Source of the DNA: Candidatus Saccharimonadota bacterium
GTDB taxonomy: Bacteria; Patescibacteriota; Gracilibacteria; BD1-5; UBA2023
Direction of reading: 5' to 3'
DNA: 32,000 bases
Assembly: GCA_042852035.1 (NCBI GenBank)
Contig: BAAFHK010000001.1
Coordinates: forward strand, 690,001-722,000
The notes below the pieces were generated by a model. That model saw only the letters and a list, made by a program, of their open reading frames with translations, searched no databases and had not been told where the DNA came from. Shown here in pieces: positions 1 to 31,725 of the stretch. A program made the translations under genes and the position numbers. Every line of letters starts with the position of its first letter. Within the stretch, counting starts at the first letter, position 1.

Positions 1-3000
1 CATCCAACTTCACTTGCAAATTGGACTCAGACGGTTCAGGCTCAAGTTACATTGAATGTTCCTTCAAGTTTTCCAAAAGTTGTCGTACTCGCAGCTGGAG
101 TTACCGTTGAAGTGAGCAATGTACCTGGAATAGTAGTTGCTCATTGGTATCTTGTAGAAGCCGTTTCTTGGAGAGATGAACCAAGAACAAAGTCACTCAG
201 TCAAGCAGTAGTACCAGTAACGGTTAATCAAACTCAAACACTTGTAGATGCTGACTGATATCTTACATATACTACGATTTCATAAGGTCATGTAGGGAGA
301 GTTGCTGACATCATTTCAGTAACATTTGAGGCAAAATTACTCGTACTAGACTGTGTAGTAGTAACTCTATAAATAAATGTCCCCGTCTGTGAAGATGATA
401 GTGTCGACCAATTAGCCACACCATTAGCATCTGAGACAAGTATTTTCCCACTTCATGCATTATTTCGAATTCGCAGTGATCCACTCAAATCAAGAGTATT
501 AGTTGGATCAACTCAGATACCTACGCTTCCAAGTCTAAATATTGTCTTATTATCTCAGATTGCAATTGTTGGATTTCATGCCTGACCAATTTGGAACTCA
601 GGAGTACCAGCAAAATTATTAGCACCACCTCGATTTTCGTAACGAATATTTCTTTGATTTGAAAGTCATTTTAGAACAAGATCCACAAGATCAACAGAGC
701 CTGCTTGTTCAAGCATTAAACCATTCACTCATGCCCTGTTTTGGAGGTAAAGTCGTGCAGTTCCATATGTATCTCCTGTTTCCTCTATAACTAATCCTTG
801 ATTTCAAGATATACGACTATTTGCTGTTGGAAAAGTAATTGTTCAAGCCCCATTATCCGTAAAGCTTCCTATTCCAACGCTTGAACTTGAGAGCCATCGA
901 GTAACATAATTTGTTGTTCCTCAAGTGAGAGTTGCAACGACCGCTTGCCAAGACGCTACACCAGTAGCATCAGAAGTAAGAACCCTACCAGAAGCTGGTG
1001 ATCCTCCAGAAATCTTTACCTGCCCATTAACATCGAGTTTCACGCTACTTGATGGCGTTGAAGTTCCGATTCAAACACTTCCATTTGCACCTATTCTCAT
1101 TCTTTCGCTTCCTGCCGTATAGAATCGAGTAATACCATGAGTGTAGTTTGTAGTATTTTTCGTAGTTTGTCAGACAGTAAGAACTCCTCATGTTTGACCA
1201 GAAGTTCCAGCAGCATAATTTATTGCTAGACCCCTATCCCAGTCAAATCCATCAGAAAGAATAATGGAAGATCCTACTGCACCCATAAACCATAGTGATG
1301 ATGCGTTTTGATAGCTTTTAATAGTAAATTGCGATTGTCCTGCGGTATCATTAAGTTTAAAATCTCCGCCATTTATATGAAGCATAGACTGTGGATTGTT
1401 CGTACCAATTCCAACATACCCTCCAGTCGTGACACGAACCTTTTCCGTATTACTTGTACGAATTACGAGTGGTTGAGCATCCGTAGTTCAAAGGAAATTA
1501 GTTACCGGATCCGTTCCTGCATTTCCTATAAGTGACCATCCTGCAATACTTCCTGTCGCCGCTGTTTGCCAACTTGCAATTCATGATGCATCTGACACAA
1601 GGACCTTTCACATTCCTGGATTTCATCATCTAATTCTAATCGTTCCGTTGATATCAAGCTTGGTAGAACTGGTAGGTGAATTTGTAAAAATACCCACATT
1701 ACGATTCGTATAATCAAGATACATAGTGCCGCCTTGCATAGCACCAGTAGATACATTTCAAGAAAAGCGTGGGTCAAAGACTGCATACAAACCATTCATT
1801 ACTAGCGGCCATCTATGATTCGAAAGACCACTCCAGCTCGTTTGCCAGAATAGAAATCTATCACCCCCATCCGTAGCATTATCATCAAGCTTAAATACAT
1901 AATCCGTATTGTCTGCAGCATTCTCCACCGAATACATAGTTGCTGAATCAGTAGCCAGAAGCCATCGGAAGCCACCTGGGTTTGAGCTTCATATACCAGG
2001 CGAAGAAAAGTTAATGCTCTGGTTTGGTGTCAAAGTTTGGGACCCTCTCAAATACAAATTTCCATTTATGTCTAGACGAGATCCGGTTGAGGTTATCCCC
2101 ATTCAAACATTTCCATTTGCACCTATTCTCACCCGGTCCGTATTATTAGTTCGGAATAAGAGATCTACTGAATCGGTAGTACCAAGAAAGTTTGTACCAG
2201 CAATAGTTCCCGTATTTCATCAAAGATTCCATACAGACAGGGCACTTCAGGTAACTGATCCCCATGAAGCAAGTCCATTTGCATCTGAAACGAGAACCTT
2301 ACCAAGTCACGGATTTCCTCAGAGAATCTGGATTTGTCATGCAACAGATAGTCTTGCTGTTCCTGTTGAGGTACCGATTCAAATGGTTCCATTATTTCAA
2401 TATATCCAATTTCAAATATTAAGTTGATTTGATGAAGTCGATGCTGGAGCTTGGACACCATTCCCTATAAGGATATTTCATGATCCTGCACCTAAACTTG
2501 ATCCAGCATTAGCTCAAATTGCTACATTATTATGTCCAGTTGTACTACTGAGCGCATTATATCAGAAGGCCGTATTATTTGAGTTTGTGGTAACCGAATA
2601 GAGCGATTGGTATCAAAATGCAGTATTTCATACACCAGAAGTATTCGAATAAAGAGACTTAAATCCTGCCGCTGTTGAATACGATGAAGTAGTTGAGCTG
2701 AGGGCCTGAAATCCAAGTGCAGTATTTCCTCATACAGCACTTCAAGCAACTACACGAAGCGCTTCATATCACAGAGCTGTATTTGCATTTCCACTTGAGA
2801 GATTAAAGAGACTACGAGCTCAAAGACTTGTATTTCAAGTACCACTTGAGTTTGAGTAAAGAGCCTGGTAACCAACTCAAGCATTCCAAGATGCACCATT
2901 TCCATTATATAAAGATTCTTGTCCTACGGCCGTATTATTATATCCAGCACCATTTGTTCTCATCGATTTATAACCTACAGCCGTATTTGAATATCCTCAA

Positions 3001-6000
3001 CCATTCAAGAAGAGCGAATCTGGTCATACTGCAACATTACTGTTTCAAGTAGTTGATACCGAAAGAGCTCCAGATCAGACTCAAAGATTATTAAATCAAC
3101 GAGAATGATACTGTACCTGTCCAGCAGACCAGATTTCAAAATTACTTTGAGGGACACTAATACCCATTCCAATATATGATCCGCTTCAGTATATCAAGTT
3201 ACCAATATTGATCTGATTTGATCATGCTGGATTTACTGCATTTGCTCAAGATCCAATCATAATATTATTTGATCCTGTTGTAATATTGACTCCTGCAGCA
3301 TATCAAATAGCCGTATTTCATGATCATTGAATGATATTATCAAGCGCTTTGGCTCATACAGCAGTATTCCATGATCAAGATGCAGCATAATTAAGAGCGC
3401 TAATTCAGAGTCACACATTTCCATTTCATCGAAAGTGGATAAAAGTATCAGAAGTGGCTCAAGACCAAACCTCAAATCTACTCTGAGGGAAAGTAGTACC
3501 GATTCACACATTTCATGCTCATGCCTGATTTTGGAGTTGAGAATTCAGTCCAGTATTTATATAGAAATATTCAGGATGATTCGCAGGAACTGTAACCACT
3601 TTATTCCATGGGGCTGGAGTATTATATGGTGAATCATTCGTAAAGAGTCATCCTGTTTGTGATCCATTAAATCTTCAGCTTCGTGCAAAAAGTGGAGCAT
3701 CACCTCGAGCTCCGAGAGCGATTTGATAACCAAAAGTATCTCATTTTGCCGTCATGGTAAATGAATTCCATGGACTAGCAGAAAGTCAGGTTGCAGGATC
3801 ATCATTATTACAATCATATGGACTTGTTCCTGTCGAAGTAAGAGAACAAAGCGAGCTAACACCATTTTCTTTAAAGTATGGACCATTATTAGATGGGCCA
3901 TTTCATTGACTTACTACAAATGATTGTTTTCCAGGAATTGCAAAGTATTGATTGAAGTCATATGTAATATTAAAGTTATTGAGATCTGGGTTTGGAACTA
4001 AAACAGCATTTCTCAATACACCATTATATACTGCGATATTACTTATTGGACTTATTGGCAAAACCTTCCCTGAGGCATTCACTCAGAGCGCAACCACTCC
4101 ATTCGCAGTAAGAGGAGAACTCGGGTTAATTCGAGAAAGCCTCAATCAGGAATCATCCCCTATACCGGAATCAATGGTAAGTACATCATTGAGTCCTACT
4201 GAAGTCCCGATTCAAATATTTCTTCCATTATTAAAAAGTCCTGTACCAACATTCCATGTTCAACTATTATAGTAGATGGTGGCACCTGTAGTAGCTCAAG
4301 CAAGATTTAGGCTGGTAGCTGTAACTACTCAAGTCCAAGAAGCATTTCCAGAAGCATCAGAAGTAAGAAATTTTCCAACTCATGGAGAACCATTTCTTAA
4401 CCTTAGAGATCCAACAACATCAAGATTAGCGGTTGGAGACATAGTTCCGATTCATACATTTCCTCATCATGCAATAACATTATTATTTTGATCAACTCCC
4501 GGATTAATATAAAACCAATCTGATCGGTTTGTTGGAACGGTTATAGCCTTAAACCAGAGTGCTGGTATAGTCATGGCAGTATTCATAAGGGTACCACATC
4601 AAGAACTATACATACCTCAACGGACAACAAAAGGAGCATCAGTACGATCTGAAATAAGTATTTGATAGGCATATCTATCTCAGGACGTTGCATTCTGAGC
4701 GGTCATAACATAGGTTGCCCATGGTGTTTGACTACATCATGTAGGACCCTTATTTGTTGATCAAGTCTGGAATTCTGGACAGTTATATGGAACTCATCAA
4801 ACATCAGTTACCGTGAAAGACTGACGAGAATTTATGGTGAAGTATTTATCATAGTTTGCCCCTATAGTAGGAGGATTCGTAGTGCTATTAGCTACGGCAT
4901 TTGGGGTAGCACCCAGTGCGGTATAAACTGGAATAGCTCACTGTTGAGCAACGACAACATTTCCACTTCCATCGACACCAAGTGGCGCAGCAACTCCAGT
5001 AAATACGGGAGAAGTTGACACGAGCCTTGAGAGCCTCATTCATGAATCATTGGCGAGTCAAGAATCAAGGGTAAGTCTTTTAGTTGGGGATGCCGTACCA
5101 ATTCAAATATTAGTACCATTATTAAATAATCCCGTACCAACTCTCCAAGATCCACTATTATAATAAATCGTAGAACCCGTCACTGCACCAGCAAGATTTA
5201 AATTTGTAGCTGTAACTACTCAAGTCCAAGAAGCAATACCATTTGCGTCTGAAACTAACATTCTTCCGAGTCATTGTGTACCATTAATAATCTGAATTGT
5301 TCCTCATGAGACCGTGAGCTTCTGTCACGGTAAAGATGTACCAATACCAACTTCTCACGTTGTTAAAATTCTCACTTTTTCAGTATTACTTGTCTTAATT
5401 ACTAGGCTTTGCGCATCGGTTGTACCAAGAAAATTGGTTCCTGCTGTCGTACCAGCATTACCAACTATATTCCAAGAATTCATGGATGCTGGTGCTGATT
5501 GCCAACTTGCTACACCATTCGCATCAGAAGTAAGGACATAGTTATTTGTGGCTCATGAACGAATCCTGATTGTACCATTTACATCAAATTGAACTGATGG
5601 GGTTGTGGTATTCAATCAGATTTTACCTCATGTCTCATAGAGTATAGATGGATAAATACCGTTCCCTCAGGTTCAAAATTTCGTGATATAGAACTCTGCT
5701 CCTCAAGTAATTCCTGTAGCACTAATATTGGTAGCCGTTACTCCGGTCCATATTGCCAATCATGATGCATCGGATTGAAGATATCTTCATGCTCCTGGTG
5801 TTCCTCAGGTAATCTTAATTTGACCTGCTACTTCAAGTTTAGCTCATGGGGCCGCCGTACCGATACCGACATATGCGCCACTAATGTAGAGATTTTTCGT
5901 AAGAACTCCGTTGACCATATTTTGGAAATATATATCCGTCACTTCGGTTCCAACTCATAGATTTTGTGCTATATATCAAATACTTCCCTTTATGCCTGGA

Positions 6001-7091
6001 ACTGATCAGGATGCATACTGCCAAAAGTTGATATTTAAATCTCGAGTTGGAGTCCAGCTCTCTTCATATATATCTATCTTTCAACTTGATCCAACACCTC
6101 ATATTTTTACTCTTCAGCCAGCTCCCGAAAGAACTCAGGCTATCGCATCTCCATTTACACTAAACTTGTCATAGAAAGGTCCTGCATACCCTATTCCAAT
6201 GTTTCCAGAGGTACCATATATCCAGTTTCCTATATTAAGTTGACTCGAAGATGTTGGAGTAGTTGTATTTACAGCATTACCAATAAGGATATTTCATCCG
6301 GCTCAAGCTGTTAATGTCGATCCAGCAAGATTTCCAATAACAACATTATTTGGACTGGTAACATTGGCTCATAAAGCACTCAGACCTACTGCAACATTGG
6401 AGCTCAGATTTCATCATCAAGCACCAAATCGTACCCCATTTATACGAGCATCTCAACCAACAACATCAAACTTATAAGAAGCGCTTGGCGCAAGAGTGTT
6501 AATACCTACAGTTGTCCCATTATCGTAAATACTTGAGAGAATGAGCCCCACTCATCAAATTCCAAATTTTGGAACCACATACTGAGTTCATCAAGTAACT
6601 CAAGAGAGACTTATACTTGGAGTATTAGACCATCGCGCCACACCAGTTGTATCAGAAGTTAGGACATATCATGATGCAGCACCTGTAGGAAGTCGAATCC
6701 CTAAAAAGTTTGCGGTTCAACTTACATCAAGGAGGTATGCAGGACTTTGATTTGCTATACCAATTGCGCTTCCATTATTATAGAGAAGATTATTCCGTAC
6801 CCAATCTGTTCCATTGAATCGGATAGTATCTCCGAGTGTCTGACCCGAAAGAAAAAATCAATTTGCAACAGGAGTTACACATATTGGTTGACCGATATTA
6901 TTAAAACCTCAGACTACCTTATGTGCTCCATCACAAAGTGTCTCACTTGAGAAAATATTATCGAAGTACATTCGATACGTTCCTCAGGTTGTTTCTCATG
7001 TCGGTGTTGTAACCGGATAAGATAAAGCATATGATGTCACCGTAGAGGCAAGGAGAGACCATAAGGCTATATACCGTGCTATGCTTCGCAT
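1..7091 (-). CDS. Giant secreted fibre/adhesin-like surface protein, 3' end truncated by the window edge (>2,363 codons). It combines tail-fibre-like modules, YadA-head-like 14-residue repeats and a C-terminal jelly-roll-like region.
   Basis: The reverse strand from ATG 7091..7089 has no TAA/TAG down to position 1 when TGA=Gly. The frame closes exactly (last full codon 5..3). The N-terminus MRSIARYIALWSLLASTVTSYA looks like a signal peptide. There are nine copies of a module G-x-VGIGT..P...L.V.G.I.I..G.PG.G.vL.SDA.G.ASW. The track ORF 1188..1385(-) lies in this frame. Function is inferred from motifs only. Confidence 0.85.
2440..3440 (-). repeat. Coding tandem repeats of about 14 residues (about 42 bp) inside the giant gene, resembling trimeric-autotransporter/YadA head repeats
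   Basis: Translation reads ...NTAVGYKSMRTNGAGYNNTAVGQESLYNGNGASWNAGVGYQALYSNSSGTGNTSLGARSLFNLSSGNANTALGYEALRVVAGSAVGGNTALGFQALSS...NTAFGYQSLYSVTTNSNNTAFGYNALSSTTGHNNVAIGANAG... On the + strand this shows as recurring gccgtatt/gcagtatt strings. Confidence 0.7.
3530..5400 (-). repeat. In-phase tandem duplication of a module of about 297 codons inside the giant gene
   Basis: A 30-nt exact repeat gtagctgtaactactcaagtccaagaagca occurs at 4315-4344 and 5206-5235 (offset 891 bp = 297 codons). The flanks are diverged but alignable: ...SDANGIASWTGVVTATNLNLAGAVTGSTIYYNSGSWRVGTGLFNNGTNIGIGT... versus ...SDASGNASWTGVVTATSLNLAGATTGATIYYNSGTWNVGTGLFNNGRNIGIGT... Confidence 0.8.
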
Positions 7092-7117
7092 AAGTAGAAA
7101 AAAGGAATTAAAGGGTT

Positions 7118-8455
7118 TTATTGAAAAATACTTTGCAGACCAGGAGGGGGCTTACTATTGAGTTCTTGATTGAATTCAATAACTACAGATGCATTCGAAA
7201 AACGGGAATCATTATAAGGAACATTCTTCTGAGTTATATCAGCTGAATCATAAGTTCGGAAGTAATCAAAATCATATACCTGTGCATCCGCAACACTACA
7301 ATTCTGTATTACTACTGGACAAACTGGAGGAGACTGAAGCGATCAACCAATAGTATTCTTTGAAATCATAGATCATTTTATATAAAGTTGATTCCCTGGA
7401 ATATTCCATACTCATGACCCAACATATGGGATAATTTGACTTCCAACTTTTTCTCATGAATAGATTGATCACTCAGCGTAAAGAAAGCTATATATTCTCC
7501 CTACTAAGTCCTTAATAATAATATTTCCTCAACTTCAATTTGAATCTTTAAGTGCAATAATTGCATGATTTGAATCAGTATCAAGTCAGATTTGAGTCTG
7601 ACCAAGAATAACATCATTTCCCATCACTATAATCGACTTCTTCCCTGCTGGCCATGTCCAGCCACCAACACTCGTATCATAATCAGAACCGGTATGAATA
7701 AGGAAATCAAATTTTGTAGAATACTGATCTGTAAGATCACTTGGATTAGCATTTCTCGTTATAAGTGCTATATTTTTTCGTATTATGTTTAACATTTCAG
7801 CCTGACTCATAATTGAAAAAATGTATCAGACCTGCTGATTGGCGATATTATATATTCGAGTGCCTGCAATATTTCCTATAATAGCAATTTTTCAGATAAA
7901 ATTGAGTCCCACCCCATTAAACAAAACCCCACTTTGGGTTGCGCTAACAATTGGAGTAGTAGTATCAGCATAAAATGGTATCCACCCAAGAGCTGTACTA
8001 TGAGCAAAGCCTTCAAGCCTGCTTTCTGCTGGATTATAGTAGACTCATCCTGATGAGGAACCAATCCAGGTTCCTGAAAGTGATATCCATCATGAGTTTT
8101 GACTCCAAACAAATCAATCAACCGGGCAAGTTACACTCAAATCATTAAACACATTGTTCGGACACATAACTCGTGCCACTGGAAGAGTTGTATCACCATG
8201 AGAGAAGGTTGACCAACCAACATTTCAAAGCCAAAAATATCAAGAAAGCTTTCCATCCACATCAATTCCAGCATAGTATCAACTATTTGATGTGCCGATA
8301 TCAAATAGAACTCTTCCTGGATGTCCTCAATTCCAAGTATTATCTGGCAAAAAATCACCCCGGATTCGAAAAAATCTTCCCACCGAGGAAGTATTTAAAA
8401 CTAGGAAAGCAAAGGAAAAAATGAGTATTATCGAAAGGAAGAGTTTACGATTCAT
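7118..8455 (-). CDS. Secreted or membrane-anchored hypothetical protein (445 aa) with three G[YF]xW(S)xNxGWIx motifs, co-oriented 26 bp upstream of the giant gene
   Basis: ATG 8455..8453 to TAA 7120..7118 is 1,338 nt and open with TGA=Gly. The N-terminus MNRKLFLSIILIFSFAFLVL is hydrophobic. Motifs seen: GKLSGYFWLGNVGWSTFSHG, VDGFVWSQNSGWISLSG, LEGFAHSTALGWIPFY. Track ORF 7586..7810(-) is in this frame. Track ORFs 7876..8121 and 8137..8358 are off-frame artefacts. Confidence 0.75.
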
Positions 8456-14279: not shown

Positions 14280-16268
14280 CTATTTATCTATATCCAGACG
14301 GAATTTATAATTATCTTCTACAAATTTTCATTTTAATGCCGAAAGACATCGGATGATATTATTGTGCCAATTTGCATTACTCGAAGCATATATATAGCCG
14401 CTTGAATTCCCCCAACGAGAAAGCTCACTTACGGAATCATACGATCAAAGAAATTTATTATTAAAGGTTGAGGCCATCCAATAAATTCATTCTCGTGGGC
14501 TCTCAAATGAAACAACATCTCAACCATCTGTATTTCATACGTTTCCGATATTGTTTCGAGTCTTCAAGTAATTTCAGAGAGTGGTTTCTGCAAGTCATAC
14601 ACACATAAGGAAACTCGGATCGATTTTTGATTCAAGAGAAATATCCACCCAAGTATCCCAATTCTTAAAGTCAGAAGTAGCATAGGTGTTGAGGAGGTAT
14701 TTTTGTCTTTCCTCTTCCGTCTTTCATTCCATTCTAAACTTTCTCTCATAAGGCGAAAGATCTGCCTTTGATCAAACCCTTGCAACAATATCACTTATAA
14801 ACTTCTCTTGATATCGAGTAGGAAGACGAGAATAATCTAACTTGGAAATATCAAGAATTCTCAAAGGATCTATCGCCTCTCGATTTTTAAATACCTCATA
14901 ATGAAGGTGTGGACCTGTCGTCATAGGTCATGCTCCTGGGGTTCATGGAGTACCACCACTTTTAGCTATAACATCTCATTGCTCAACAAATTGGTAGGGC
15001 TTGACGAGCACTTCTGAAAGATGTCAGTAGACCGTAAAATATCCGTTCGGATGTTTTATTGCCATATAAGAATATCATCATGATACTGGTGGAAGTATAT
15101 AGTACACATATCATCAAAGACTCGCCTTAACTTGAGTTCCCTGCTCTGCTGGGATATCTATGGCATCATGCTGTGATCAAACCTCTCTATAGTAAGATGG
15201 ATCTCTAAAATAGGTCGTTATACCCGTCACTACATCGAGAGGCCATGTCAAAATATTTTCAGTTCAAGATGATACCTTTACATTCTTAAGAGCCTTTTCA
15301 TTACGATAAAAACTCAGAATATGTGCACATTTTTCAATTTCTTTTCATGTCTTCTTTTGTTTCTGGCAGCCATTTTTTTCAAGAATATTCTCAAGCGTTG
15401 CCGTGTATGCATTCGTAGCATCTTTCCATGATTCCTCTAGGGTCTTTTGCATATTTACCTGAGATTCTATATATTTTCCCAGGAGTTCTTCTCTCCCTTG
15501 TGTTGCAAGAAGAAGTTGCTCCCTAAAGCTTCTTTGTGTAATGAGATTTGTTTTTTGTTTTTCAAGCTTTTCGTTATCAATATCAAGTAGAGCAATTTCG
15601 TCATTCATTCTGATTTGAATTTTATAGTAGCTTTTTATGAGCTCTCTATAATCATCGATAAATTTCTGTCCAAGTGAACTTACAAGTGACTTATAGGTAA
15701 TATCCTGCGCAACATTATCAATATTCTCATCTGAAAGTATAAGCGATCGAAATACATCTACTTCATTTTTCTCATCAAAAATTAAATTTCCCTCCGCATA
15801 AACATTAGCTATATAAGAAAGCATTATCGAGCGGTTCTTCTTAATTTTTACTGACAATTCAATCGAAAGGTTCTTTAATTCATTAATGTCTTTCTTTTTT
15901 TCCTCTATTTGTCCTTCAATTTTTCTGATTTCAGATGATGTATCCGAAATATTTTCTTCTATATTTGCTATGAGACTCACAAGAGAATCTTTTTGGAGAG
16001 AAACTTCTGATTTCTTTTGTTCATATGTTTTTATAACTTGAGAAAGCCTATTTCTTAATCCTTCAATTCAAGAAATGAGATATTCCTTTTCATAAATATC
16101 ATTAGCTCAAGACTGATCAAACAATGAGTTTTCAAAAAGGATTTCGTACTCTTCTTTTTTAAAAGAATCAAGGATTCGTCCCGATGTAGCTGGATCAATA
16201 CTCAAGGCAATCAATGGCGACACTGATATAAGCAAGATACTTGAGAGGAATATTGTGGAATAGCGCAT
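14280..16268 (-). CDS. Secreted peptidoglycan hydrolase: N-terminal coiled coil, M23/LytM metallopeptidase domain, and a C-terminal glucosaminidase (FlgJ/LytD)-like domain
   Basis: ATG 16268 to TAG 14282..14280 (662 aa, TGA=Gly). Signal-like N-terminus MRYSTIFLSSILLISVSPLIALS. M23 motifs: HDAIDIPAEQGTQVKASLGGYV...YMAIKHPNGYFTVYGHLS...[29 protein letters not shown]. C-terminus: IDPSFLMCVGLAETTLGNYLKTRNNIGNVG (tentative). Track ORF 15345..15980(-) is in frame. Track ORF 14564..14794(-) is off-frame. Confidence 0.85.
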
Positions 16269-16452
16269 AATTTCATCATAACATATTCCCTCATGAAATA
16301 TTTCATTTCATTATACTATTTCTTATAAAAATATCTTGATTAAAGCTGTATTACTTGAGAAATATAAAAAATTGCTTGAAATTACTTTCTAATAAAGGTC
16401 CTCCAACCATAATTTTTGCGATAATACTCCGTCGTTGTATACAAGTTTTTAT

Positions 16453-18851: not shown

Positions 18852-19457
18852 GTGTATACACTTAACGCCATTGTACTCTCAAAACAACTTATTCGAGATA
18901 ATCAGGTTCGCGTAATATTATTCACTGAAGACTATGGAAAAATTACCGCCTGGACAAAAAAGCCATACTCAATAAGCGACATATGATCTCTTACGGAAAT
19001 AGTTATTGAAAGAAAAAAGCAAGAAAATATTATTCACAGTATTACTCCACTACACACACCAAAGAATGAGTGATGGAATTATAAAACGACTCTCGAATAC
19101 CTTACACTCTTCCAACTTATAAGAGAAAGCCTTCCTGAATGAATGTCGCAAAAAGATATATTCCATGACATAAAAGAAATTATTAGCCACCTTTCTTCAA
19201 TCGATTTATATTTTCAAAGCAGCACAAATAAAACATTACAACTTTTCATACTTTCAAAAGCTCGCATCTTGAAGAGACAATGATTTTTACGCGAAGAGCT
19301 TTTTTTAAATTCAAAAGTTCTCTCAAACATATTTCAAAGACTCGATGTTGCAAGTATGAAAAGTATGATTAATTCAAGAGAAATACATTTACCAACACTA
19401 AAAGAAATTGAATACGCGATTTCTGAATGAATCCATACTTATAAAAATAGAATTTAA
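18852..19457 (+). CDS. recO: DNA repair protein RecO-like (201 aa, no zinc-finger cysteines)
   Basis: GTG 18852 (a TAG lies 3 nt upstream) to TAA 19455-19457. The N-terminal OB-fold pattern VYTLNAIVLSKQLIRDNQVRVILFTEDYGKITAWTKKP is typical of RecO. The C-terminal helical part is less diagnostic. Confidence 0.6.
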
Positions 19458-19468
19458 TCCCTTCTTTT

Positions 19469-20434
19469 ATGCTTAGCCTTTATATTGGAATTACTATCAT
19501 TGGACTTCTTTTCTGAAGTTTTGCAACTGTACTTGTTACCCGATGGCATACGCATGAAGAATGAATTTTATTTTGAAGGAGTAAATGCCCAAAATGTCAT
19601 CATACTCTTTCTTGGTTTGAACTTCTTCCTCTTATTTCATACATATTTCTTCTCTGAAAATGTAGAAAATGTTCCACAAAAATACCGCTTTTTTACCCGC
19701 TTGCTGAAATTATAATGGCTAGCATTTTTCTTATTCTAACAATATCTTACATAAGAATTGAATGATATTTTGTAGGCACCCAGTATGCTCTCTTACTGAT
19801 GCTATGATTCATTACTGGAGTTTATGTTCTTTCTGACATACGCTATATGGAAATACCTGATGAGATACTCGTACCCTGAATTTATTGATACCTTTTACTT
19901 CTTTGAATTGGTTATTACAATGACTCATTAGGTGGTATTTTTTTTGATGTATCAAGCTATATATGAGGTTACAAAGAGTTCATTTTTGATCATTTATTTG
20001 GAGCTTTTGTACTCTATACCTTTCTTTTTCTACAAATAATTATCCCAGCAACGATACAGTATGCCAAGAAAAAGAAATGGAGTGATGTTGGTTGAGTATT
20101 TCTTTCATATTTTACATTTCCCATCCTCCTCCTTTTTCCTCAAAAAGAGAGCACAAAGAATGATGATGAAACTTCGATTGAAACATGGGTGTGATGATGA
20201 GATTTAAGAGTTGCACTTTTTATATGAATAACCCTAGGGCTTGTCCATGGGATTTTTTCATTCTTTGTAGCCTATATCCTTTGAAGTTTTATTTGAATAA
20301 TCATTATTCTATTCACCTGAAAAGTAAAGAGCCAAATCCCCTTCTGACCATTTCTTGCCTTCTGATGGTTAATGGCAATATACTTTCATTCCGATATATT
20401 ATCACTCCTTGAGGCATATAAAACACTACTATAA
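19469..20434 (+). CDS. pilD: Prepilin peptidase (A24 family, type IV leader peptidase/N-methyltransferase)
   Basis: 321 aa with TGA=Gly. Signatures: LLFGSFATVLVTRW; Cys cluster GRSKCPKCHHTLSWFELLPLISYIFLLGKCRKC; catalytic Asp motifs SDIRYMEIPDE and WVGGGDLRVALFIG (GGG encoded by TGA-TGA-TGA at 20192-20200); IPFGPFLAFGW. Track ORF 19485..19715 is off-frame. Confidence 0.9.
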
Positions 20435-21070: not shown

Positions 21071-22432
21071 ATGAGAAATCATTCTTCTTTACGCAAACAA
21101 ACTGAGTCAATCCCTTGGAAATGGGTATGAGTTATAATTATTATTTTTATCATTCTTACTTTTCTTCGAGGCATCTGATCAGGTAAGGATGATGATATGG
21201 GAAAGTGAATTCTCGTTGGCTGATCTGGAACTTTTGTTGCAACAAATAAAAATAATGAAAAACGTGATGTATGAGCAGGAGAAAAATTTTATGAAACTGA
21301 CGAGCTTTTTTCTGTAATATCAGGAATGGCGGAACTCAATGATTGAGGTTCGAAGATTTGGCTCGATAAGAACTCTGATTTTTCCCATACAGAGAATGGA
21401 TCATGATACCTCTTATCTCAAGGAAGAATGTGGGTAGAAGCAAGTAATGATATCTTTTTCTCGTTAAAACATATCGACATAAAACTTTCAGAGTGAGATA
21501 TCGCCCTTTTTGAGCAGCAAAGAATATACAGTATAGTATATGTGATTCGCTGAGAGGCAACTGTCTTATGAGGATCAAGAGAGGCTGCATTAAAGGGGTG
21601 AAAAAGGATTATGGTATCCCAATCAAATCTCATTAATCCTTGAGTTACTCTAGAGAGTCTTATTGGTGATATTGATGAATCAATTCAACAAAATGCATTC
21701 TTTCTTGCCCGAAATGGAAAAGATCTCCTTGAAAAACAAAAATCAAATGAATCAAAGGAATGATCTTGAACAATAAATAGTATTTCATGATCATGAAATA
21801 CTCAATCCAATTCGAGTTTAAATAAACTCGTGACTATAAGTTCACCAATCGATGGCTCCTTCATTACTGGTGGAGTCCTCATCGTAGAATGAAAATCACT
21901 TTCAGCACAGGTAAAAAAGATAATTATACAAGACCAACCAATTCAACTCATAGAATCACCCTGATCATTTCGATCTTCTCCAATTTCTATAAATACTTCA
22001 ACGGTCGACTTAGTATATAAGGCTTATGATGCTTGAAACAACCTTCTGGAGAGATGAGTTATCACTGTTTACTCCTCAGATAAACAATCTGGATCAGAAA
22101 AGCTGGTACCAAAAACATTTCCAACGAATGATAAGGATTTTCGCGTTATTAGCCCAAATGAAAACCCTTATAAGACAAATCTTTCAGCCATAACAGTCTC
22201 TTGAACTGTTCCAAAATGACAAGTTGAATACATTACGGTAAATAATTTTCGACTTAAAAAATTTATTGCAAAAAGCACAACTTGGTACTACTACGCAAAT
22301 ACAGAATATCAGACAATGAAAGAAGGATTTAATCTCTATGAAATTCGATTTTACGGACCAAATGATGCTCTCCTCTCAACACAACTCTTTACTATAATAA
22401 AAGAAGGTTGAGTCACCCTTTCCTGAGAATAA
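21071..22432 (+). CDS. Membrane-anchored protein (453 aa) with a FecR-like domain and C-terminal Ig-like domains
   Basis: ATG 21071 to TAA 22430-22432 (TGA=Gly). TM helix: WKWVGVIIIIFIILTFL. FecR-like stretch: GILVGGSGTFVATNKNNEKRDVGAGEKFYETDELFSVISGMAELNDGGSKIWLDKNSDF. Two beta-rich segments (VTISSPIDGSFITGGVLIVEGKS...; FRVISPNENPYKTNLSAITVSGTVPKG...). Domain labels are tentative. Confidence 0.6.
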
Positions 22433-22439
22433 CATTTAC

Positions 22440-23066
22440 ATGAATTATTTCATTCACTCACATAAGTGAGCCACCATGGTTGAGCTCATGGCCGCTCTTG
22501 GGATTCTTTCGCTTGGAATCACTGCCCTGCTACAAACTCTTGGCTGAGGAATACGCTATGCGAATGATACTGAAAACAATATTAAAGCCATTAATATAGC
22601 AAGAGAAGGAGTAGAAGCTATGATAAACATCAGGGACACAAATTGGCTTCGTTTTTCGAGCGATAGAACCAATTGTTGGATAGTTAAAAATTATGATGCT
22701 ACCTGTATTGGAGATACAACTCCTCCCGAAATAGCTTCAGGTGCATATACTGTAGTGTCATTGAATGGGGCATGGTATCTCTCCTGAGCAGTAAATGGAA
22801 TTAATCCCATAACAAACTGGACCACCTATAAGCAGGTATTTCGCGTTGGAATAGATAGTGCATGATTTTTTACTCAGACTGGAGTATCTGCCACAGCCTG
22901 TTCATCAACCATACAAAAAAATTGCCTTACTATCTTTACAAGAGAGGTAAATGTCACAGTCACTCCAGGAAATATGCTCGTCCAAAGTATTGCTCGATGG
23001 AATCAAGAAAGACCAAGAAGTGTCATAATTGAAACGAATCTTACAAATTGGAAATCTCGTTTTTAA
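22440..23066 (+). CDS. Type IV pilin-like protein / pseudopilin (208 aa)
   Basis: Class III signal peptide MNYFIHSHKG|ATMVELMAALGILSLGITALLQTL, with Gly at -1 (encoded by TGA) and Glu at +5. It starts 7 nt after the preceding gene and lies downstream of pilD. Confidence 0.75.
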
Positions 23067-23107: not shown

Positions 23108-23164
23108 AAATATTTGCCAATTAATAAAAGATATGCTATTCTTTAAAAAAATAAATACAAATAC

Positions 23165-24625
23165 ATGTCCCCCCTCACTCGAAATCTATCACGAGCCCTT
23201 ATAACAATATGGATCATAAATTGCGCCCTTGCTTTTACTATTGCGATTAAACAAGTCTGGATTCCCTATATGAACGCTGGGAATGAACCCTATTCAAATA
23301 TAGTATCGCCCCCATTCGATGGCACAATAATGCCCATACTCTATGTTCCTGATTGGACAAAAACTGAGAATCAGGATAAATCAAAAAGATTTGAAGATAT
23401 AAGCATAAGTGAATATATTCCTATTCCTCAATATGATGCTCTGGCATTGCTTGATTCCAATAGTGCCTCAAAATCAAGTACCATTTTAAGGTACACCTAT
23501 TTTACTCCTTATATGGGGTCTTATAATCTTGATTATAAGGAACATGTCTGAGGTCATCTCGGTATAGACATACGTGCACCCATCTGAACCCCAGTTCTCA
23601 GTATTGCAAATGGTGTTGTTGTTCGAACTGTTGAAGCGGATAGCTCATGAAATAAGTTTATTGTTGTAAGGCATGATAATATCCCACTAGAAGGTGGGAA
23701 AAAATCACTTTACTCGTGATATCTGCACCTATCAGAAATTCTTGTAAAAGAAGGAGACATTGTTAGAAAATGAGATATGATTGGCCGCGTTTGACTTACC
23801 GGAATTACTACGACACCACACCTTCATTTTCAAATCGATACCCCTGATGCACCATTTCATCCATATTGGCACTTCACGAGCACCGAGGCTAGAAATGCAA
23901 AACTGAATTTTTTTGAAGCAATTAATGCTGGACTAAATAAGGATAAAGCAGAAAAATATACAATTCACCCTCTGAATTTTATAAGCATGTACCTCTGAGG
24001 CGTTTCCGAAAATGAAAAAAATACCCCTCTTATTTCATCCAGCAAAGAAACTGAACCTACCCAATCAAAAACAATAGCTGCCTATATTTCAGAAAACGAG
24101 GAAAATTGTATTTGAAAACGATTTTCAGACGTTTCTGAGAAATCATCATTTGGTAAACTCCTTTATCCACTTCTAGACAGAAAATGCATTTTTCAAGAAG
24201 GCAAAGAGACATTTAATGCAAGAGAAAGTCTCACATTTCGTGAAGCACTCATAAATACAATGAGATTTTATGACATTGCTCCAACAAATGGCACAAGTCA
24301 TTTTCTCGATATCCCTATCTGAGATAGCATGCAATGATATGCACTAGTGGCTCATAGAAAGTGAATACTTACAGGAAGTCATGCTCATCCAGAGCATATC
24401 ATGACACGAGAAGAATTGGTGGACCTGATAATAAAAGTTTCCGATGCCCCAAAGAATCCATCCCAGATTCGCATTTATCCAGATGTTGATACAATGAATC
24501 CTTACTATAATCAAATTCAGGATTATGCGTTTCTCACAAAAGATCGATGAGGTAGGTTCTATCCAAAAAATATCGTTACGCGCTGAGTTTTTCTTCAGAT
24601 GCTCTCTCAGACAAATAAAAACTAG
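23165..24625 (+). CDS. M23/LytM metallopeptidase with three C-terminal SLH-like repeats (486 aa)
   Basis: Extends track ORF 23165..23551 through TGA codons to TAG 24623-24625. TM helix: ALITIWIINCALAFTIAI. M23 motifs: GGHLGIDIRAPIGTPVLSIANGVV...FIVVRHDN...LYSGYLHLSEILVKEGDIVRKGDMIGRVGLTGITTTPHLHFQI. SLH-like repeats: RFSDVSEKSSFGKLLYPLL...LTFREAL; HFLDIPIGDSMQGYALVAHRKGILTG...MTREELVDLI; YPDVDTMNPYYNQIQDYAFL...VTRGVFLQML. Confidence 0.8.
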
Positions 24626-26148: not shown

Positions 26149-26161
26149 AATTTTTGGAAAT

Positions 26162-26190
26162 TTGCATTATTTCTCCTCATCTGCTACACT
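26162..26190 (+). promoter_or_regulatory. Putative sigma70-type promoter with leaderless geometry (TTGCAT-17 nt-TACACT-6 nt-ATG)
   Basis: TTGCAT at 26162-26167, TACACT at 26185-26190, ATG at 26197. Confidence 0.5.
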
Positions 26191-26196
26191 GATACT

Positions 26197-26631
26197 ATGA
26201 AAAAAGTTATAACATCTCTCCTTCTCGGAACACTTATCAGCCTTTCTCTTTTGGTACAATGAGCTCAGGCTGCTGGTTGCTGGTTTCAATTCACTTGTAG
26301 CCAAACAGATCCTGCTCAAATTGAAACCTGCAGTAATGGAACTTGTACTATTCAATGATGAGCCACTGTTGCATCGAATGCAGTAGGAGATCTTTTATCA
26401 AAAAAGAAAATTGAAGTATTTGTAGCAGATACTGTAAAATATTTTCTCTCTTTTGTTGCACTCATTGCTGTTGTATACTTTATCTACGCATGATTCCAAC
26501 TCATGGTGAGTGGTTGAGATGAAGAGAAGGCTAAAAAAACTCGAAAGATTATGATCTATGTTATTGTTGGAATTATTCTCATTTGGGTTTCCTATTGGCT
26601 TGTTGCAATCGTTATAAATTCACTTACTTAG
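26197..26631 (+). CDS. Small secreted membrane protein resembling TrbC/VirB2-type (T4SS-pilin-like) proteins common in CPR (144 aa)
   Basis: Signal peptide MKKVITSLLLGTLISLSLLVQGAQA. Four-Cys segment CWFQFTCSQTDPAQIETCSNGTC. Then two hydrophobic helices bracketing a charged loop: FLSFVALIAVVYFIYAGFQLMVSGGDEEKAKKTRKIMIYVIVGIILIWVSYWLVAIV. The family call rests on architecture only. Confidence 0.6.
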
Positions 26632-26649
26632 TTCCTCGGATATACTTTT

Positions 26650-29600
26650 ATGTTCTACATTTCCCAAAAGAAATCTACTGCCCTAAAAAGCCTCCTCCTT
26701 ATAGGAGTTTTTTTACTTCAAACAATCCTCCCTCTTATACCTAGGGCGATTGCTTATGAGAGCACTGATGATACATTTATATACTACAAACAAAAAATTG
26801 AGGGACTTCTTCAGGACCTGGAAAGAGAGTTTCGCGTCAATAACTCCGTAACTGATGCATCCATAAATAATATACGGAAGATGGTTCAGGAGGCCTACTA
26901 TCGACTTCCTGATAGAGGTGATTTTGCAAACGCAAATAGTGGAATAGAGAAATCTGTTGAACTCTATCTCGATCTTGCGCAAAAAAATAAATCAAGCCAG
27001 ACTTTTGTCTCAAATGCAGCAACTCAAACGGCTCGATTTCTCTACGAAGCAAAAATTGAGCAAATTACAGGAACAATCACCGCCAATCCTACAAACGGAA
27101 ATGCTCCGTTAACTACATCATTTTTTGCAACCGCTAAAGATCCATCGTGAGTAATTATTCCAGATGGAAATTACATATGGTGGATGCGAGAAAGAGGCTG
27201 AAACAGAAAGGAGCTCTGAAGGTGACCCCTCCTTACTTATACATTTTCGAAAGAAGGAAACTATCAGGTATTTCTTGATGTTGTATCAGACAGTAGAAAT
27301 AGTAAATGAAAGATTGATGTTCTTCCTCTTACCACCTCTCAAGACATAGAAGTACGTCCTCGACTCTGAAACGTAATCCTCCTTGTAAATGGGGTTAATG
27401 TGAGCAATCTCGATCAAATCAAAATAAGTCCTGCCGTTTGAAAAATTGGAGTACTTTTTGATGCTACTGCATCTAGGGCTGTGAGTAATGGCGTTATTTC
27501 AAAAACTGAATGGGATTTTTGAAATGGAAATACCTCAAAATATGATGGTCCACCAATTGTTGAAAGACAAATCTTTTCCAACGAATGATCATATAGAGTT
27601 GTTTTGAATATAACCAGCAACCAATGACAGCCATTTAAAAAAGAAATAACTTTAGTAGTCAGAGACCCCTCAGCCGTGATAACTGCTGATAAAGAATCGG
27701 CATTTCTCTGAGAAGAAATTCGAATGTCAGCAAAAACCTACTTGTCCAATACTGCAAATGTAGAATATAATTGGCAGGTTCAGGATGACATCGGAAAGAA
27801 AGTAATAGTAAGCCAAGAAGGGTCAACTTTTACTTATAAGTTCCAAAAAGTTGGACAATATGTTATTACTCTTACTTCAAGAAGCCCAAATGGGAATACA
27901 GATACCGATTCAAGAACCATTACTATAGAATCTCATGCCCCAACGGTTAATCTCGATACTCCAACTCCAATAAGCAAAGAAAAACCAAATGTTATAGTAT
28001 TTGATGCATCTAGAAGTTTTGATCTCGATACGAAAAGTGCCCGTTGACTCACTTATACTTGGATTATCGATGGTGAAAAAGTTAACCTTGATAATGTAAC
28101 AAATGATTGAGGAAAAGGTACCTATACCTTTACTCAAAAATGACAACATACTGTGTCACTAACCGTTGCAAATACCTATGGTAAGGTTACTACGATTGAT
28201 AAAACTTTTGAAGTTACTTCCCTGCTCACTGTTTGAGTGAATATAAGTCCGCGTGCGGCACCAATAGGAACGGCAATATCTTTTCAGGCTCGAGCCCCAG
28301 AAGCTAGTTTTTACGAATGGGATTTTGGTGATGGAAGTGCTCCCGTAAATGGAAATCTTGATTCTATAGAGCACATATATAATAAAACTGGGGTTTACAC
28401 CGTAACACTCCATGTAAAAAATATAAATTGAACTGAGGAGAATCTTATTTCACGTACCATTTATATCACTGATACTGATAGTCCATTCGCACTTATTGAT
28501 ATTAGTAATGGCTCAAATACGATTGCTGAAAACCCAAATGGGTGTGAAGCAAGCGGTACAGGTTGATCTTTTATGATTAACCGATCAGAAAATACTAAAA
28601 TTGATGGAGCTAAGTCAGTAAATGTCGATGGAAATACTTCATGACTGAGCTATACATGGAGATACATGTGAAGGGTAAAAACAGGATCGTCTCTTTATGA
28701 GAAATTTACAGAACTCTGATGCTTTCCGATTGAGCTCACTGTTCGAAGTGAGAAAAACGGATCATCTCATACTACAAAAAGATTTCTCGAAATCAGAAAC
28801 ATGCCACCGAAACTTACTTCAATTACTTCAAACGTAGATTCAACAAAGAAGGATTCACAAAAACTTATCGCAACGGTAAATGCTAATGGCGCAAAAGATG
28901 AAGATGGAGTTATAACATCCTATGTATGGTACTATACCACTGAAAGCGATAGCGAGAAACAAAATGTTAAAATTACTCAGCTTCCAACAACTTCTTTCGT
29001 GCTCCCAAATATCTCAGAAAAATACTACTTTTGAGTAATTCTCGAAGATAATGACGGGGCTCGTGTCGACAGCACTGATACTCTTGCTGAACAAATACCT
29101 CTTATTACTTCAAATGATGAGGCCAACATTAATATGCCCCTTATCAACTTAAGCGTTGATAAAACTCAAGCACTTACAGATGAAACAATAAACTTTTCCG
29201 TTTCAGCAAAGAATATACTCGGAGCAGACATAACCGGAAAGAGTGAGTATTACTGGGATTTCGATGGTGATGGACACACCGATAAGAGAAGCTCTGAGGC
29301 TACCGCTTCATATGCATACAAAAATTCTGGAAGATATAATATGAAGGTAAAGGTTGTAAATAATGGTGTCTCAAACACAAAATACCAAGTAGTATATGTA
29401 AAAAATGAACTTAAAGCATCCATAAAATGATATCGCTATGGAAATGCTGTCTATTTTATCAACACAAGCAAGTGATCTTATGATAAAGTAGAATGGCAGT
29501 ATGGAACAAACGTATCCGAAAATCAGTACTCTTTTATGCTTCCTTGGCCAATGAGTACCTGAAGTGGTCAAGTTGGTACTTTTACAGTAAAAGCATGAAC

Positions 29601-31725
29601 GAGTGAAGTATCGAGCACTGAAATATCTGAAAGCATAGTCGAAGAGACGCCAAAGCCTGAAGATGGTATTTCAATTCAAACATTTCCAATCATCCAAAGC
29701 GGAACACTACTAGTACAAGGAGCTGGAGAAAAAATACTCCTGAGTGCCTTCGGAAATAATGCAAAGGAATATGCAATAGATATCGATACAAAAATTGACA
29801 GCGATCTCGATGGTATTCCTGACAATGATAAAGATAATAAAGATACACCGTCATTTACTGATGGAAGTGTATTTGCGATTACAAACCTCGAAAGCGTAAA
29901 AACGAGAAATCGAGAAGTAAAGATAAGCCTTATTTGAGATGATTGAGCTACAATTGCTGTTAAAAAAATACCAGTCGTATTTAGCTATATTCCTGGAAAT
30001 AATACCGACACAACTGATTTAACATCTACATGAATTGTAGAGTCATTTAGTGCTATCGATAAAGAAAATCTCGAACAGTTACAATCAAAAATTCGCTCTC
30101 TAGAGTCCGACGATAGGATTATATTTACTCAAAAATACAACACACTCATTGAAAATTGGAGTGACCTCTACGAACGAACTCAGAATCTTCTCGAAATCCA
30201 AAAGGAGGTCGATGAAAGTGCCACTCTAGATGATAAAACAAAGGAGGATCTTTCAAAACTTATTGATATAATTCTTGTAGGAGATGCGCAAGCAACAAAT
30301 GAAATTAGTGTTGCAAGTAGAGTAATAGAATGAATGATTAAACTCGATAATCCTGATAGGGACTATATAATTGAACGACTGGAACAAATTAAAGCTCATC
30401 CAGCAAATCTAGCAGAAAATAAAGCTCTCTGAAAAGAAATCCTACTCAAGGTAGAATGAGATTCAAATCTTTCAAATGCTGATAAACTTCTCTTAAAGAG
30501 TCAACTTCAGATTATAGTAAATGGATGACAAGAAAGCATTCCTGCTGATGAAGTTATAGTACCAGTCGCAGAAACTTGATGAAGTGGTTGATTTTTTGGA
30601 TTCATCAAGGGGGCTCTGATAATTTTTTGAGTACTTATTGCTATAATACTTGGACTTGTTTTAATTGGATATATTTTCTACAGGCTTTCTCGAAAGAAAA
30701 ATGCTGATATGGGGTTTCAGGATTTTCTTATTGATTCCATCGCACATAATAAGACTACCTCTAAAGAAGCTATTCGAAAAGAAGCTGAAACCACTGTAAA
30801 AGCAGTTGAATTGAAACCAACTGATTCATCTAATATCATCAACCCAGTACATGATCCTCTACAAAATTCAGCTCCAACCTCCCCTCTAAATAATATTCCA
30901 TCTCCTGTTCCTGTATTTAAAGAAGAACCTCTCAGTCAGAAAAATACAACTCCTGTGGCATCACCTTTTGATCCTCTTAATTCAGGGAGCAAAGTAGATC
31001 CCCTTGCAGAGATTCATGAAGAAAAAAAGACTGAATCATTTGAAAAAAATACACCTGAATCAGGTTCAGTAGACCTTAATACAAACCAAAAGAATCCAGA
31101 AGAAGTCACGGAAAAATCAGCAGATGACCAAAGTGAAATCCCTGACTGGCTTAAGCCACTACCAAAAAATTCTTCAAAGAATCTAGACGATACTCAAATA
31201 TCTAAGTCAGAAGAAAATAATGAACCAAAAACAGAAACAACTGTAACAACCGATAAGAGTTCTATCTTATGACCCCAAGTTGACTCAACAAAAACTGAGG
31301 AAACATCATCCACCAAAGAAGAAAATCCCCCTTCACCATCAAGTAGTGATGCTACTCTAGGAAGGCCTGATAGCCCATTAGAGAATAGTGATGAAGAATT
31401 AGTACCTGATTGGCTTAAGCCCCTAGGAGACTCCTCTGAAATAGTCAATGGAGACAGTCCTTCCCTCCTTCCAATGAATGACGTTAATAGCCCTTCGGAT
31501 GATTATTCGCCTTTAATCGAAGAAACTCCTGCTGCGAGTGCGGAACTTCCAGAATGGCTTAAGGCATCGGCTTCAAATATTTCTCCTGAAGAAAAGAAGG
31601 ATAAAAAACCTGTGGAAACAAAAAAGAAAAAAGGAATAAAAAAAGCCCCAACAGCTCAAAAAGATGAAGATATCCAGCCTGAAAAAAAGATGGATAATCA
31701 AGATATTCCAGATTGGTTAAAATAA
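26650..31725 (+). CDS. Giant surface protein (1,691 aa): signal/anchor, helical N-domain, about 8 PKD-like Ig domains, helical stalk, one TM helix, low-complexity tail with four P[DE]WLK motifs
   Basis: Seven track ORFs (26650, 27724, 28237, 28801, 29134, 30709, 31474) share one frame and join through TGA=Gly with no TAA/TAG. PKD signatures: NPTNGNAPLTTSFFATAKDPSG...TYTFSKEGNYQVFLDV; FYEWDFGDGSAPVNG...HIYNKTGVYTVTLHV; EYYWDFDGDGHTDKRSSEATASYAYKNSGRYNMKVKV. TM helix: FIKGALIIFGVLIAIILGLVLIGYIFY (about 30600-30690). Confidence 0.85.
31141..31722 (+). repeat. Four dispersed P-[DE]-W-L-K short linear motifs in the post-TM tail of the PKD protein
   Basis: EIPDWLKPL (cct gac tgg ctt aag, 31141-31155). 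LVPDWLKPL (31405-31419). LPEWLKAS (31549-31563). IPDWLK-stop (31708-31722, the extreme C-terminus). Confidence 0.8.

Follow-up and report, generated by a model that had tools for sequence, protein, structure and literature searches.

A giant recoded gene for a probable MAT- and phage-tail-fibre-like surface fibre in HHAS10, a bacterium found on Zoogloea

We have analysed a 32,000-nucleotide stretch of contig BAAFHK010000001.1 (assembly GCA_042852035.1, positions 690,001 to 722,000 of the forward strand; the whole stretch is called the window hereafter) and found that its first 7,091 positions are occupied, on the reverse strand, by a single giant gene. The source is the metagenome-assembled genome (MAG) HHAS10, which belongs to class JAEDAM01, order BD1-5. 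We consider, with a probability of roughly 0.65, that this chromosomal gene encodes a secreted, very long, probably trimeric adhesive surface fibre of HHAS10, similar to mosaic adhesive trimer (MAT) fibres and phage tail fibres, whose tip most likely binds the host. This reading starts from what we observed directly, namely the reading frame and its code, the domain architecture, the homology of the shaft to MAT fibres, the predicted fold of the tip (modelled on an orthologue), the chromosomal synteny and the cassette formed with an upstream partner gene. HHAS10 is an activated-sludge MAG, and its cells are tiny cocci that were seen by fluorescence in situ hybridization only in association with Zoogloea (Fujii et al. 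2024, PMC11393006), with Zoogloea ribosomal signal falling near the HHAS10 cells (PMC11393006). A first-pass annotation of the window had supposed a lineage of episymbionts or predators of other bacteria, which agrees with the report that HHAS10 is always attached to Zoogloea (PMC11393006). Binding of this host is a candidate function of the fibre. The parts of the fibre protein, in order from its N-terminus, and the partner gene are as follows (aa, amino acid residues; i-E, independent E-value of a hidden Markov model match).

1..7091, reverse strand: fibre gene; 2,363 codons in the window and probably about 27 more plus the stop; 49% identity over about 2,000 aa to the syntenic orthologue P0002
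7026..7091, reverse strand: predicted signal peptide, aa 1-22 (MRSIARYIALWSLLASTVTSYA, followed by LS); basic n-region, hydrophobic core and conserved cleavage-site context
6855..7025, reverse strand: lineage-specific N-terminal domain, aa 23-79, with Cys53 and Cys71; presumed cell-proximal anchor
6630..6773, reverse strand: shaft module 1, aa 107-154; i-E 1.4e-19
6192..6419, reverse strand: short Asn/Gly-rich, beta-roll-like repeat block, aa 225-300; holds TGA-TGA-TGA; 60% identical to aa 1504-1572
5748..5879, reverse strand: shaft module 2, aa 405-448; i-E 7.7e-24
5502..5630, reverse strand: shaft module 3, aa 488-530; i-E 3.5e-24; opens the first supermodule of about 115 aa (aa 484-600)
5226..5360, reverse strand: shaft module 4, aa 578-622; i-E 1.1e-23
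4467..5225, reverse strand: insert A, aa 623-875, with Cys771, Cys786 and Cys832; tandem duplicate of insert B; found in 31 homologues; lineage-specific
4335..4466, reverse strand: shaft module 5, aa 876-919; i-E 5.8e-25
3516..4334, reverse strand: insert B, aa 920-1192, with Cys1082 and Cys1094; E about 1e-110 to 1e-117 in 13 homologues
2394..3509, reverse strand: 17-residue repeat region, aa 1195-1566; consensus N-T-A-x-G-y-x-(A/S)-L-x-x-N-x-x-G-x-x
2262..2393, reverse strand: shaft module 6, aa 1567-1610; i-E 8.8e-24
1569..1706, reverse strand: shaft module 7, aa 1796-1841; i-E 8.7e-26
948..1085, reverse strand: shaft module 8, aa 2003-2048; i-E 3e-24; aligned to the Bd2133 beta-helix
408..533, reverse strand: shaft module 9, aa 2187-2228; i-E 1.3e-21
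3..407, reverse strand: tip domain, aa 2229-2363, truncated at the window edge; beta-rich; shares 45% identity with the tip of P0002
7118..8455, reverse strand: partner gene, 445 aa, on the same strand and 26 nucleotides upstream of the fibre gene

The frame of the fibre gene runs from the ATG at 7091 to position 3 and contains 2,363 codons with no TAA or TAG and with 135 TGA. It had been proposed that this frame is open only under genetic code 25 and that TGA occurs at every 15 to 20 codons; the machine translation agrees on both points, the measured frequency being 1 in 17.5. Each of the remaining five frames of 1-7091 holds 32-147 TAA or TAG codons. The longest run free of TAA and TAG measures 2,383 codons, whereas 200 shuffles gave 150 on average and never more than 228. 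The triple TGA that had been pointed out at 6411-6419 of the forward strand was located at codons 225-227.

Judging from the sequence, TGA is glycine and not tryptophan in the fibre gene and in the window, because it stands on invariant glycines of valyl-tRNA synthetase (ValRS) in the window (HLGHA, WWGHQIP, ETGHD and FGTGAVK) and opposite glycine codons in an orthologue. When 114 fibre TGA codons were aligned to the orthologous gene at locus L001, 93 of them stood opposite GGN or TGA and none stood opposite TGG. Within the V-G-I-G-T motif of the fibre gene, TGA and GGN interchange, and TGA is the commonest glycine codon of the gene (135, against 106 GGA and 88 GGT). The 32-kb window is recoded alike throughout, with at least 16 long frames that each have 5-37 in-frame TGA, and UGA as glycine in HHAS10 has been confirmed by Codetta (PMC11393006).

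The gene had been described as still open at the window edge, and this has to be revised. Nine homologues with the same C-terminal tip end 18-28 aa (eight of them 27-28 aa) beyond the equivalent of residue 2362, so the open reading frame (ORF) is nearly complete; about 27 codons and the stop would lie beyond position 1 of the window, and the full protein would have about 2,390 aa. An exact 40-mer search of genome and metagenome contigs for the C-terminus beyond the window gave no match, and no close relatives of the C-terminal 268 aa were found in metagenome contigs. The notion that the gene is hidden by recoding holds in part. On the one hand, the standard code leaves just three ORFs of at least 90 aa over 1-7200, two of them antisense, and the databases hold mistranslations or stubs. 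On the other hand, the source genome was deposited under code 25, since a neighbouring protein equals the code-25 translation of the window exactly. The database copies of the family (P0001-P0029, P0271-P0291) are code-4 translations or N-terminal stubs of 51-144 aa that end at the first TGA. The HHAS10 fibre protein is not in the collection of 5.8 billion proteins that we searched (best match 60% identity), and the neighbour from the same NCBI record is present there at 100%. The giant fibre gene may not have been called in the deposited annotation.

The fibre protein is rich in glycine (15%), with Thr, Ser and Asn also abundant, and a Pfam and NCBIfam scan of the whole protein gave no match at E<=1. 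The design is nevertheless a known one, that of MAT fibres and phage tail fibres. The PHROG tail fibre family matches the shaft modules (E 5.5e-12), and PHROG tail spike and virion structural families match the 17-aa repeat block (E 1e-23 to 1e-28). When the whole fibre protein was compared with PDB sequences, the single match was Bd2133 of Bdellovibrio (8OND, E 4.6e-7), and a profile of three supermodules matched 8OND (2.9e-11), 8OJN (2.8e-7), 8OML (3e-3), 8OL4 (0.03) and 8ON4 (0.06). The last four are deposited as Bdellovibrio 'cell wall surface anchor family proteins' and are taken, from their adjacent entry codes, to come from the same MAT study; beyond these MAT structures, the remaining PDB matches of the profile were two designed proteins. 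Additionally, the shaft module is near-identical to that of Peredibacter P0062, which NCBI names 'tail fiber domain-containing protein', an annotation class that has been counted as MATs in the genus Peredibacter (PMC13147790). The modules had been associated with tail-fibre proteins at first sight, and the PHROG families, the MAT shaft profile and the homologues carrying this name all support that association.

MAT proteins of Bdellovibrio were shown by experiment to be surface-displayed, intertwined trimeric fibres of beta-helix and beta-prism type (Caulton et al. 2024, PMC10769870). They combine a conserved N-terminal domain with interchangeable C-terminal tips (S74, novel beta-sandwiches, TNF-like, C-type lectin), and one of them binds prey glycans, O-antigen (PMC10769870). 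Compared with this superfamily, the HHAS10 protein has the signal peptide, the homologous shaft and the variable tip, and Peptidase_S74 was not matched.

The protein had been said to begin with a signal peptide, and its N-terminus indeed looks like a predicted Sec signal peptide. It has basic residues (R2 and R6) and a hydrophobic core, and (L/V)xYP is immediately preceded by a small-x-Ala site; this cleavage context was seen in 11 family members. Outside aa 1-22, no second transmembrane-like or hydrophobic segment was found in the fibre protein. Directly behind the signal peptide lies the N-terminal domain, which occupies the same place in 28 of 120 homologues and in 14 Gracilibacteria loci; together with the first shaft element (aa 23-112), it shows 23 invariant columns in a 93-column alignment. 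A profile search with this domain returned only truncated stubs from the same lineage and no PDB relative, and no alignment was obtained with the N-terminus of Peredibacter P0062. The N-terminal region ends in the motif G-D-T-I-R-F-N-G-T-x-W...L-Y-N-N-G-x-x-I-G-I, which recurs before each insert (aa 81-134 compared with 633-687, nucleotides ~6690-6851 and ~5031-5195) and also resembles the G-D/N-x-L-x-Y-N-G-x-A-W-V repeats of Peredibacter P0062. Because this closing motif recurs before the inserts, the conserved N-terminal domain can be understood as a unique part of about 57 aa followed by a shaft element.

The shaft itself is built of repeated units. The first-pass count of nine modules was reproduced by the hidden Markov model, which found nine full modules of about 45 aa (i-E 1e-19 to 1e-26) with the consensus xVGIGT..P...L.V.G.i.i.gG.pG.GkvLtSDa.G.AsW, and in addition nine weaker, partial ones, most of which cover the V-G-I-G-T half. 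Three of the modules lengthen into supermodules of about 115 aa (aa 484-600, 1563-1679 and 1792-1912). The two Cys-containing inserts that had been noticed could be traced to a tandem duplication (aa 579-892 and 877-1208), each copy of which carries an insert of about 250 aa, and insert B is the most conserved element of the fibre family. An AlphaFold2 (AF2) model of the Cys-containing insert reached pLDDT 41 and is unusable for fold assignment. The 17-residue repeat region gives an autocorrelation peak at lag 17 and has a short copy at aa 225-300. These repeats had been called YadA-head-like, and the resemblance in motif stands; a period of 17 aa and the lack of a Pfam YadA_head match do not agree with that name. 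Membership of YadA_head was also tried and rejected, on the period, on the Pfam result and on a BLASTP E of 0.011 to the YadA_head-positive segment of P0054.

At the distal end, the first-pass annotation had recognized a jelly roll of C1q/BclA type, and this is supported at the level of fold. We modelled the complete tip of the syntenic orthologue P0002, which contains two code-4 artefacts, as an AF2 monomer from a 40-sequence alignment. The resulting model consists of beta structure throughout (pLDDT 91.2, pTM 0.84) and supports the assignment of the tip to a TNF/C1q-type (ten-strand) jelly roll. Foldseek returned 57 PDB matches with E<=1e-3, at the head of which stand TNF ligands, TNF-like lectins, Bd2734 and BclA; they include 4-1BB ligand, Eiger, BclA, and the trimeric lectins PLTL and BC2L-C N-domain (TMt 0.65-0.72), and the C-terminal domain of the MAT Bd2734 (8OKW) was matched at E 1.8e-5. 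Among predicted viral structures there were 420 matches at E<=1e-3. The best of them are C-termini of tailed-phage proteins (TMq 0.7-0.81, root-mean-square deviation 2-3 A) that carry collagen repeats, Mtd_N or lambda Stf repeats or are named tail fibre, and viral proteins with a C1q domain were matched too.

The sequence family of the tip comprises 1,120 representative proteins at E<=1e-3. Among the 150 best-scoring of these proteins, 95% of complete copies finish within 3 aa of the protein C-terminus, and several of them match PHROG tail fibre or minor tail families. One tip homologue reached 16 bits for BclA_C, below the cut-off of 38. The tip is also exchanged within the family: in 18 full-length members that share the N-terminal domain, the last 170 residues form at least three unrelated groups (Cys-rich in 8, TNF-like in 7 and a third type in 3), and the syntenic orthologue P0001 has a Cys-rich tip in place of the TNF-like tip of the HHAS10 fibre.

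Our search of the protein collection gave 155 matches at E<=1e-10. The top 29 or so are 1,400-3,900 aa long, just one of them has a precomputed Pfam domain, and their stored sequences are code-4 translations with Trp for Gly. More distant homologues carry Peptidase_S74, YadA_head or collagen repeats and include a 'tail fiber domain-containing protein' in Saprospiraceae, Flavobacteriales and Peredibacter. A genome scan with the insert profile found 23 loci, all in MAGs labelled Gracilibacteria, Peribacteria or Patescibacteria; read in code 25, these loci give fibres 1,500-3,329 aa long, which have the same N-terminal domain, 4-11 modules and one or two inserts. The first-pass annotation had suggested comparing the presence and variability of orthologues among related genomes, and syntenic orthologues were found, with differing tips. 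Three Gracilibacteria MAGs (loci L007, L008 and L009) have two fibre genes in tandem behind the partner (about 1,250-1,630 and about 1,650-1,700 aa), the first of which has a weak match to the N-terminal domain or, in L009, none.

The fibre gene is chromosomal and syntenic. Loci L001 and L004 share the order ValRS, sugar transferase, small ORF, LGT, a protein of about 445 aa, fibre and ABC-F, and the gene order of the window agrees with them as far as the window extends. Wherever the 5' end of the fibre gene is visible (15 loci), the partner gene directly precedes it on the same strand, and the 26-nucleotide gap in the window has no terminator-like site. In the partner protein, a hydrophobic segment lies at the N-terminus and a DPPPG motif at the C-terminus, and four Cys are invariant; the protein is 100% identical from end to end to GAB0174789.1, HHAS10_06680 [Candidatus Altimarinota bacterium]. 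It is plausible that the partner is a dedicated anchor, chaperone, assembly factor or export factor for the fibre.

Based on these features, we propose that the Sec signal peptide would be removed on export and that the lineage-specific N-terminal domain, with its putative disulfide, would stay close to the cell, where the 445-aa partner may hold it. The shaft would consist of the nine V-G-I-G-T...SDA-G-x-A-S-W modules, the half-modules and the 17-residue repeats, would carry the two inserts as globular bodies, and would project the TNF/C1q-type jelly-roll tip away from the cell. The tip would then most likely bind a glycan or protein of the host surface. By analogy with MAT fibres, we infer that the fibre is probably trimeric and is displayed on the cell surface with its N-terminus as the anchored end. 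Its length may be very roughly 100 nm, a value scaled from Bd3182, which has 922 aa and measures about 550 A (PMC10769870). A more specific proposal, which we regard as less likely than not, is that the partner and fibre cassette is the host-range determinant of JAEDAM01/BD1-5 episymbionts: a MAT-like fibre of about 100 nm, anchored or assembled by the partner on a cell with a single membrane, would place a TNF-like lectin tip, of the type known from phage receptor-binding proteins, on Zoogloea surface polysaccharide, swaps between the three or more tip types of the family would retarget the symbiont to other hosts, and the inserts would act as extra binding knobs on the shaft.

Several results weigh against the reading as an adhesive fibre for the host. 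The tip has no sequence match to Pfam C1q, TNF or BclA_C (own protein, E<=1) or to any PDB chain; the model is that of an orthologue with 45% identity and of a monomer, and it resembles TNF, C1q and Bd2734 by fold alone. The insert profile found no relative among PDB sequences. For the partner, neither Pfam nor the PDB yielded a relative, and none of its 97 homologues bears a name beyond 'hypothetical protein'. Whereas the N-terminal domain of MATs is a beta-rich domain of about 130 aa that occurs in all 21 MATs of B. bacteriovorus, that of HHAS10 is a domain of about 57 aa with a Cys pair; the two are set apart here by description. The attachment of HHAS10 has been credited to type IV pili (PMC11393006). 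Finally, an orthologue is conserved in MAGs of differing environments, which would equally fit a general role in the envelope.

This last point leads to the alternative that the protein is a general structural part of a fibrous envelope or coat, or serves cohesion between symbiont cells, rather than host-specific recognition. We consider it unlikely, although it would suit the presence of one orthologue at a conserved housekeeping locus in many MAGs, the thick fibrous coat of Vampirococcus that has been attributed to giant proteins in general (PMC8080830), and the loose clusters that HHAS10 cells form among themselves (PMC11393006). However, the tip is swappable and belongs to a type with which lectins, MAT fibres and phage receptor-binding proteins bind their ligands, and its type varies between syntenic orthologues. 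Such swapping would be expected of a specificity determinant rather than of a scaffold.

The PHROG matches to tail fibre, tail spike and virion structural families, together with a tip fold in which many Caudovirales tail fibres end, could also point to a tail-fibre gene of a prophage or tailocin. The predicted N-terminal signal peptide and the housekeeping synteny make such an origin very improbable: ValRS, LGT, the sugar transferase (Bac_transf) and ABC-F flank the gene in a conserved order in several MAGs. Additionally, the window showed no genes for phage structure or packaging, and the patterns used to scan IMG/VR contigs did not detect the family-specific insert there. A YadA-type trimeric autotransporter adhesin is suggested by the names that JGI gives to some homologues ('trimeric autotransporter adhesin'), by the N-T-A-x-G repeats, which recall the YadA head, and by Pfam YadA_head in some distant homologues. 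Such an adhesin would need an anchor barrel, and the HHAS10 protein has a TNF-like jelly roll at its C-terminus instead, and its polarity is opposite; its repeats have a period of 17 rather than 14 aa, and neither YadA_head nor YadA_anchor is matched in it at E<=1. These CPR (candidate phyla radiation) bacteria also have a single membrane (PMC8080830 and general knowledge). Considering the missing barrel and the reversed polarity, we give this possibility hardly any weight, even less than that of a prophage. A MAT-like fibre remains the explanation that we prefer.

The window also contains other genes of the cell surface. Peptidase_M23 proteins are encoded at 14280-16310 (reverse strand) and 23147-24625 (forward strand), the first with a long, coiled-coil-like N-terminal half; the four M23 peptidases of HHAS10 have been regarded as possible bacteriolytic factors (PMC11393006). 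A prepilin peptidase (A24_N_bact and Peptidase_A24) lies at 19451-20434 and a small pilin-like protein with a weak N-terminal methylation motif at 22401-23066, both on the forward strand, which places parts of a type IV pilus 12-16 kb from the fibre gene. At 26149-31725 of the forward strand, a T4SS_pilin-like protein of 144 aa is directly followed by a protein of 1,691 aa, again a large surface protein but of another kind than the fibre; it has five or more PKD domains and a C-terminal transmembrane helix, as well as a cytoplasmic tail in which the motif (I/V)PDWLK is repeated. Scans of the window for tRNA and Rfam families found none.

Host recognition by the ultrasmall episymbionts of the CPR/Patescibacteria is largely unexplained, and published work credits type IV pili. 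The HHAS10 paper discusses type IV pili, ComEC, a polyhydroxyalkanoate depolymerase and M23 peptidases and does not mention the fibre protein (PMC11393006). The fibre locus is a second concrete candidate for attachment, in an organism of known host (HHAS10 on Zoogloea), and since the tip folds confidently in prediction, it could be expressed and tested for binding. The public entries of the family are mostly code-4 mistranslations or short code-11 stubs, and domain annotation and structure prediction that use them are accordingly degraded.

Among known systems, code-25 CPR predators have already been credited, in broad terms, with giant surface proteins (PMC8080830). Vampirococcus lugosii (Absconditabacteria) is likewise an episymbiont or predator of the CPR that uses code 25 and has giant secreted proteins, for which a fibrous surface and host binding were proposed (PMC8080830). 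Its giant proteins contain WD40, PKD, integrin, fibronectin and DUF11 domains, and no tail-fibre or MAT type was described among them (PMC8080830); by this description they differ from the HHAS10 fibre. In the literature searched, MAT-type fibres were described just for Bdellovibrio-like organisms, and the fibre family is not described in the Gracilibacteria and HHAS10 papers.

Tailed-phage tail fibres with a collagen or Mtd_N stalk and a C1q/TNF-like C-terminal receptor-binding domain share the tip fold with the HHAS10 protein; the tip sequence family also stands at the end of proteins that match PHROG tail fibre and minor tail families, and the shaft repeats match tail fibre and tail spike PHROGs. 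Unlike phage tail fibres, the HHAS10 fibre has a Sec signal peptide, a chromosomal housekeeping context without virion genes nearby, and a far greater length. The jelly roll of the tip is also shared with TNF-like lectins (BC2L-C N-domain of Burkholderia cenocepacia and PLTL of Photorhabdus laumondii; TMt 0.65-0.72) and with BclA of Bacillus anthracis (TMt 0.53-0.56), but the sequence identity of these proteins to the tip is 8-14% with no family-level match, and the domain caps a huge fibre here.

The architecture is also close to that of the MAT fibres of Bdellovibrio bacteriovorus (Bd2133, Bd2734, Bd2439, Bd3182). Both kinds of fibre begin with a signal peptide and an N-terminal domain that is conserved within its own group; both have a long shaft whose repeats are of V-G-I-G-T type and significantly similar in sequence (8OND, 8OJN) and a swappable C-terminal tip, which in HHAS10 has the TNF-like fold of the Bd2734 tip (8OKW), and both are borne by cells that live on other bacteria. 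On the other hand, MATs have about 1,000 aa and the HHAS10 fibre has about 2,390 aa, more than double. Unlike MATs, the latter has two lineage-specific Cys inserts, a 17-aa repeat block and an obligatory upstream partner gene of 445 aa, and it has no S74 domain. Fibre genes number one or two per locus here, compared with 21 MATs in the B. bacteriovorus genome, and the bearer is a monoderm-type CPR bacterium with code 25, unlike the bearers of MATs. The doubled length, the apparently different N-terminal domain, the inserts, the 17-aa block, the partner gene and the monoderm, recoded bearer are real differences from MATs. Our analysis indicates that the adhesin design of MAT and phage tail fibres extends to a monoderm, recoded phylum, where it has its own anchor domain, inserts and partner gene.

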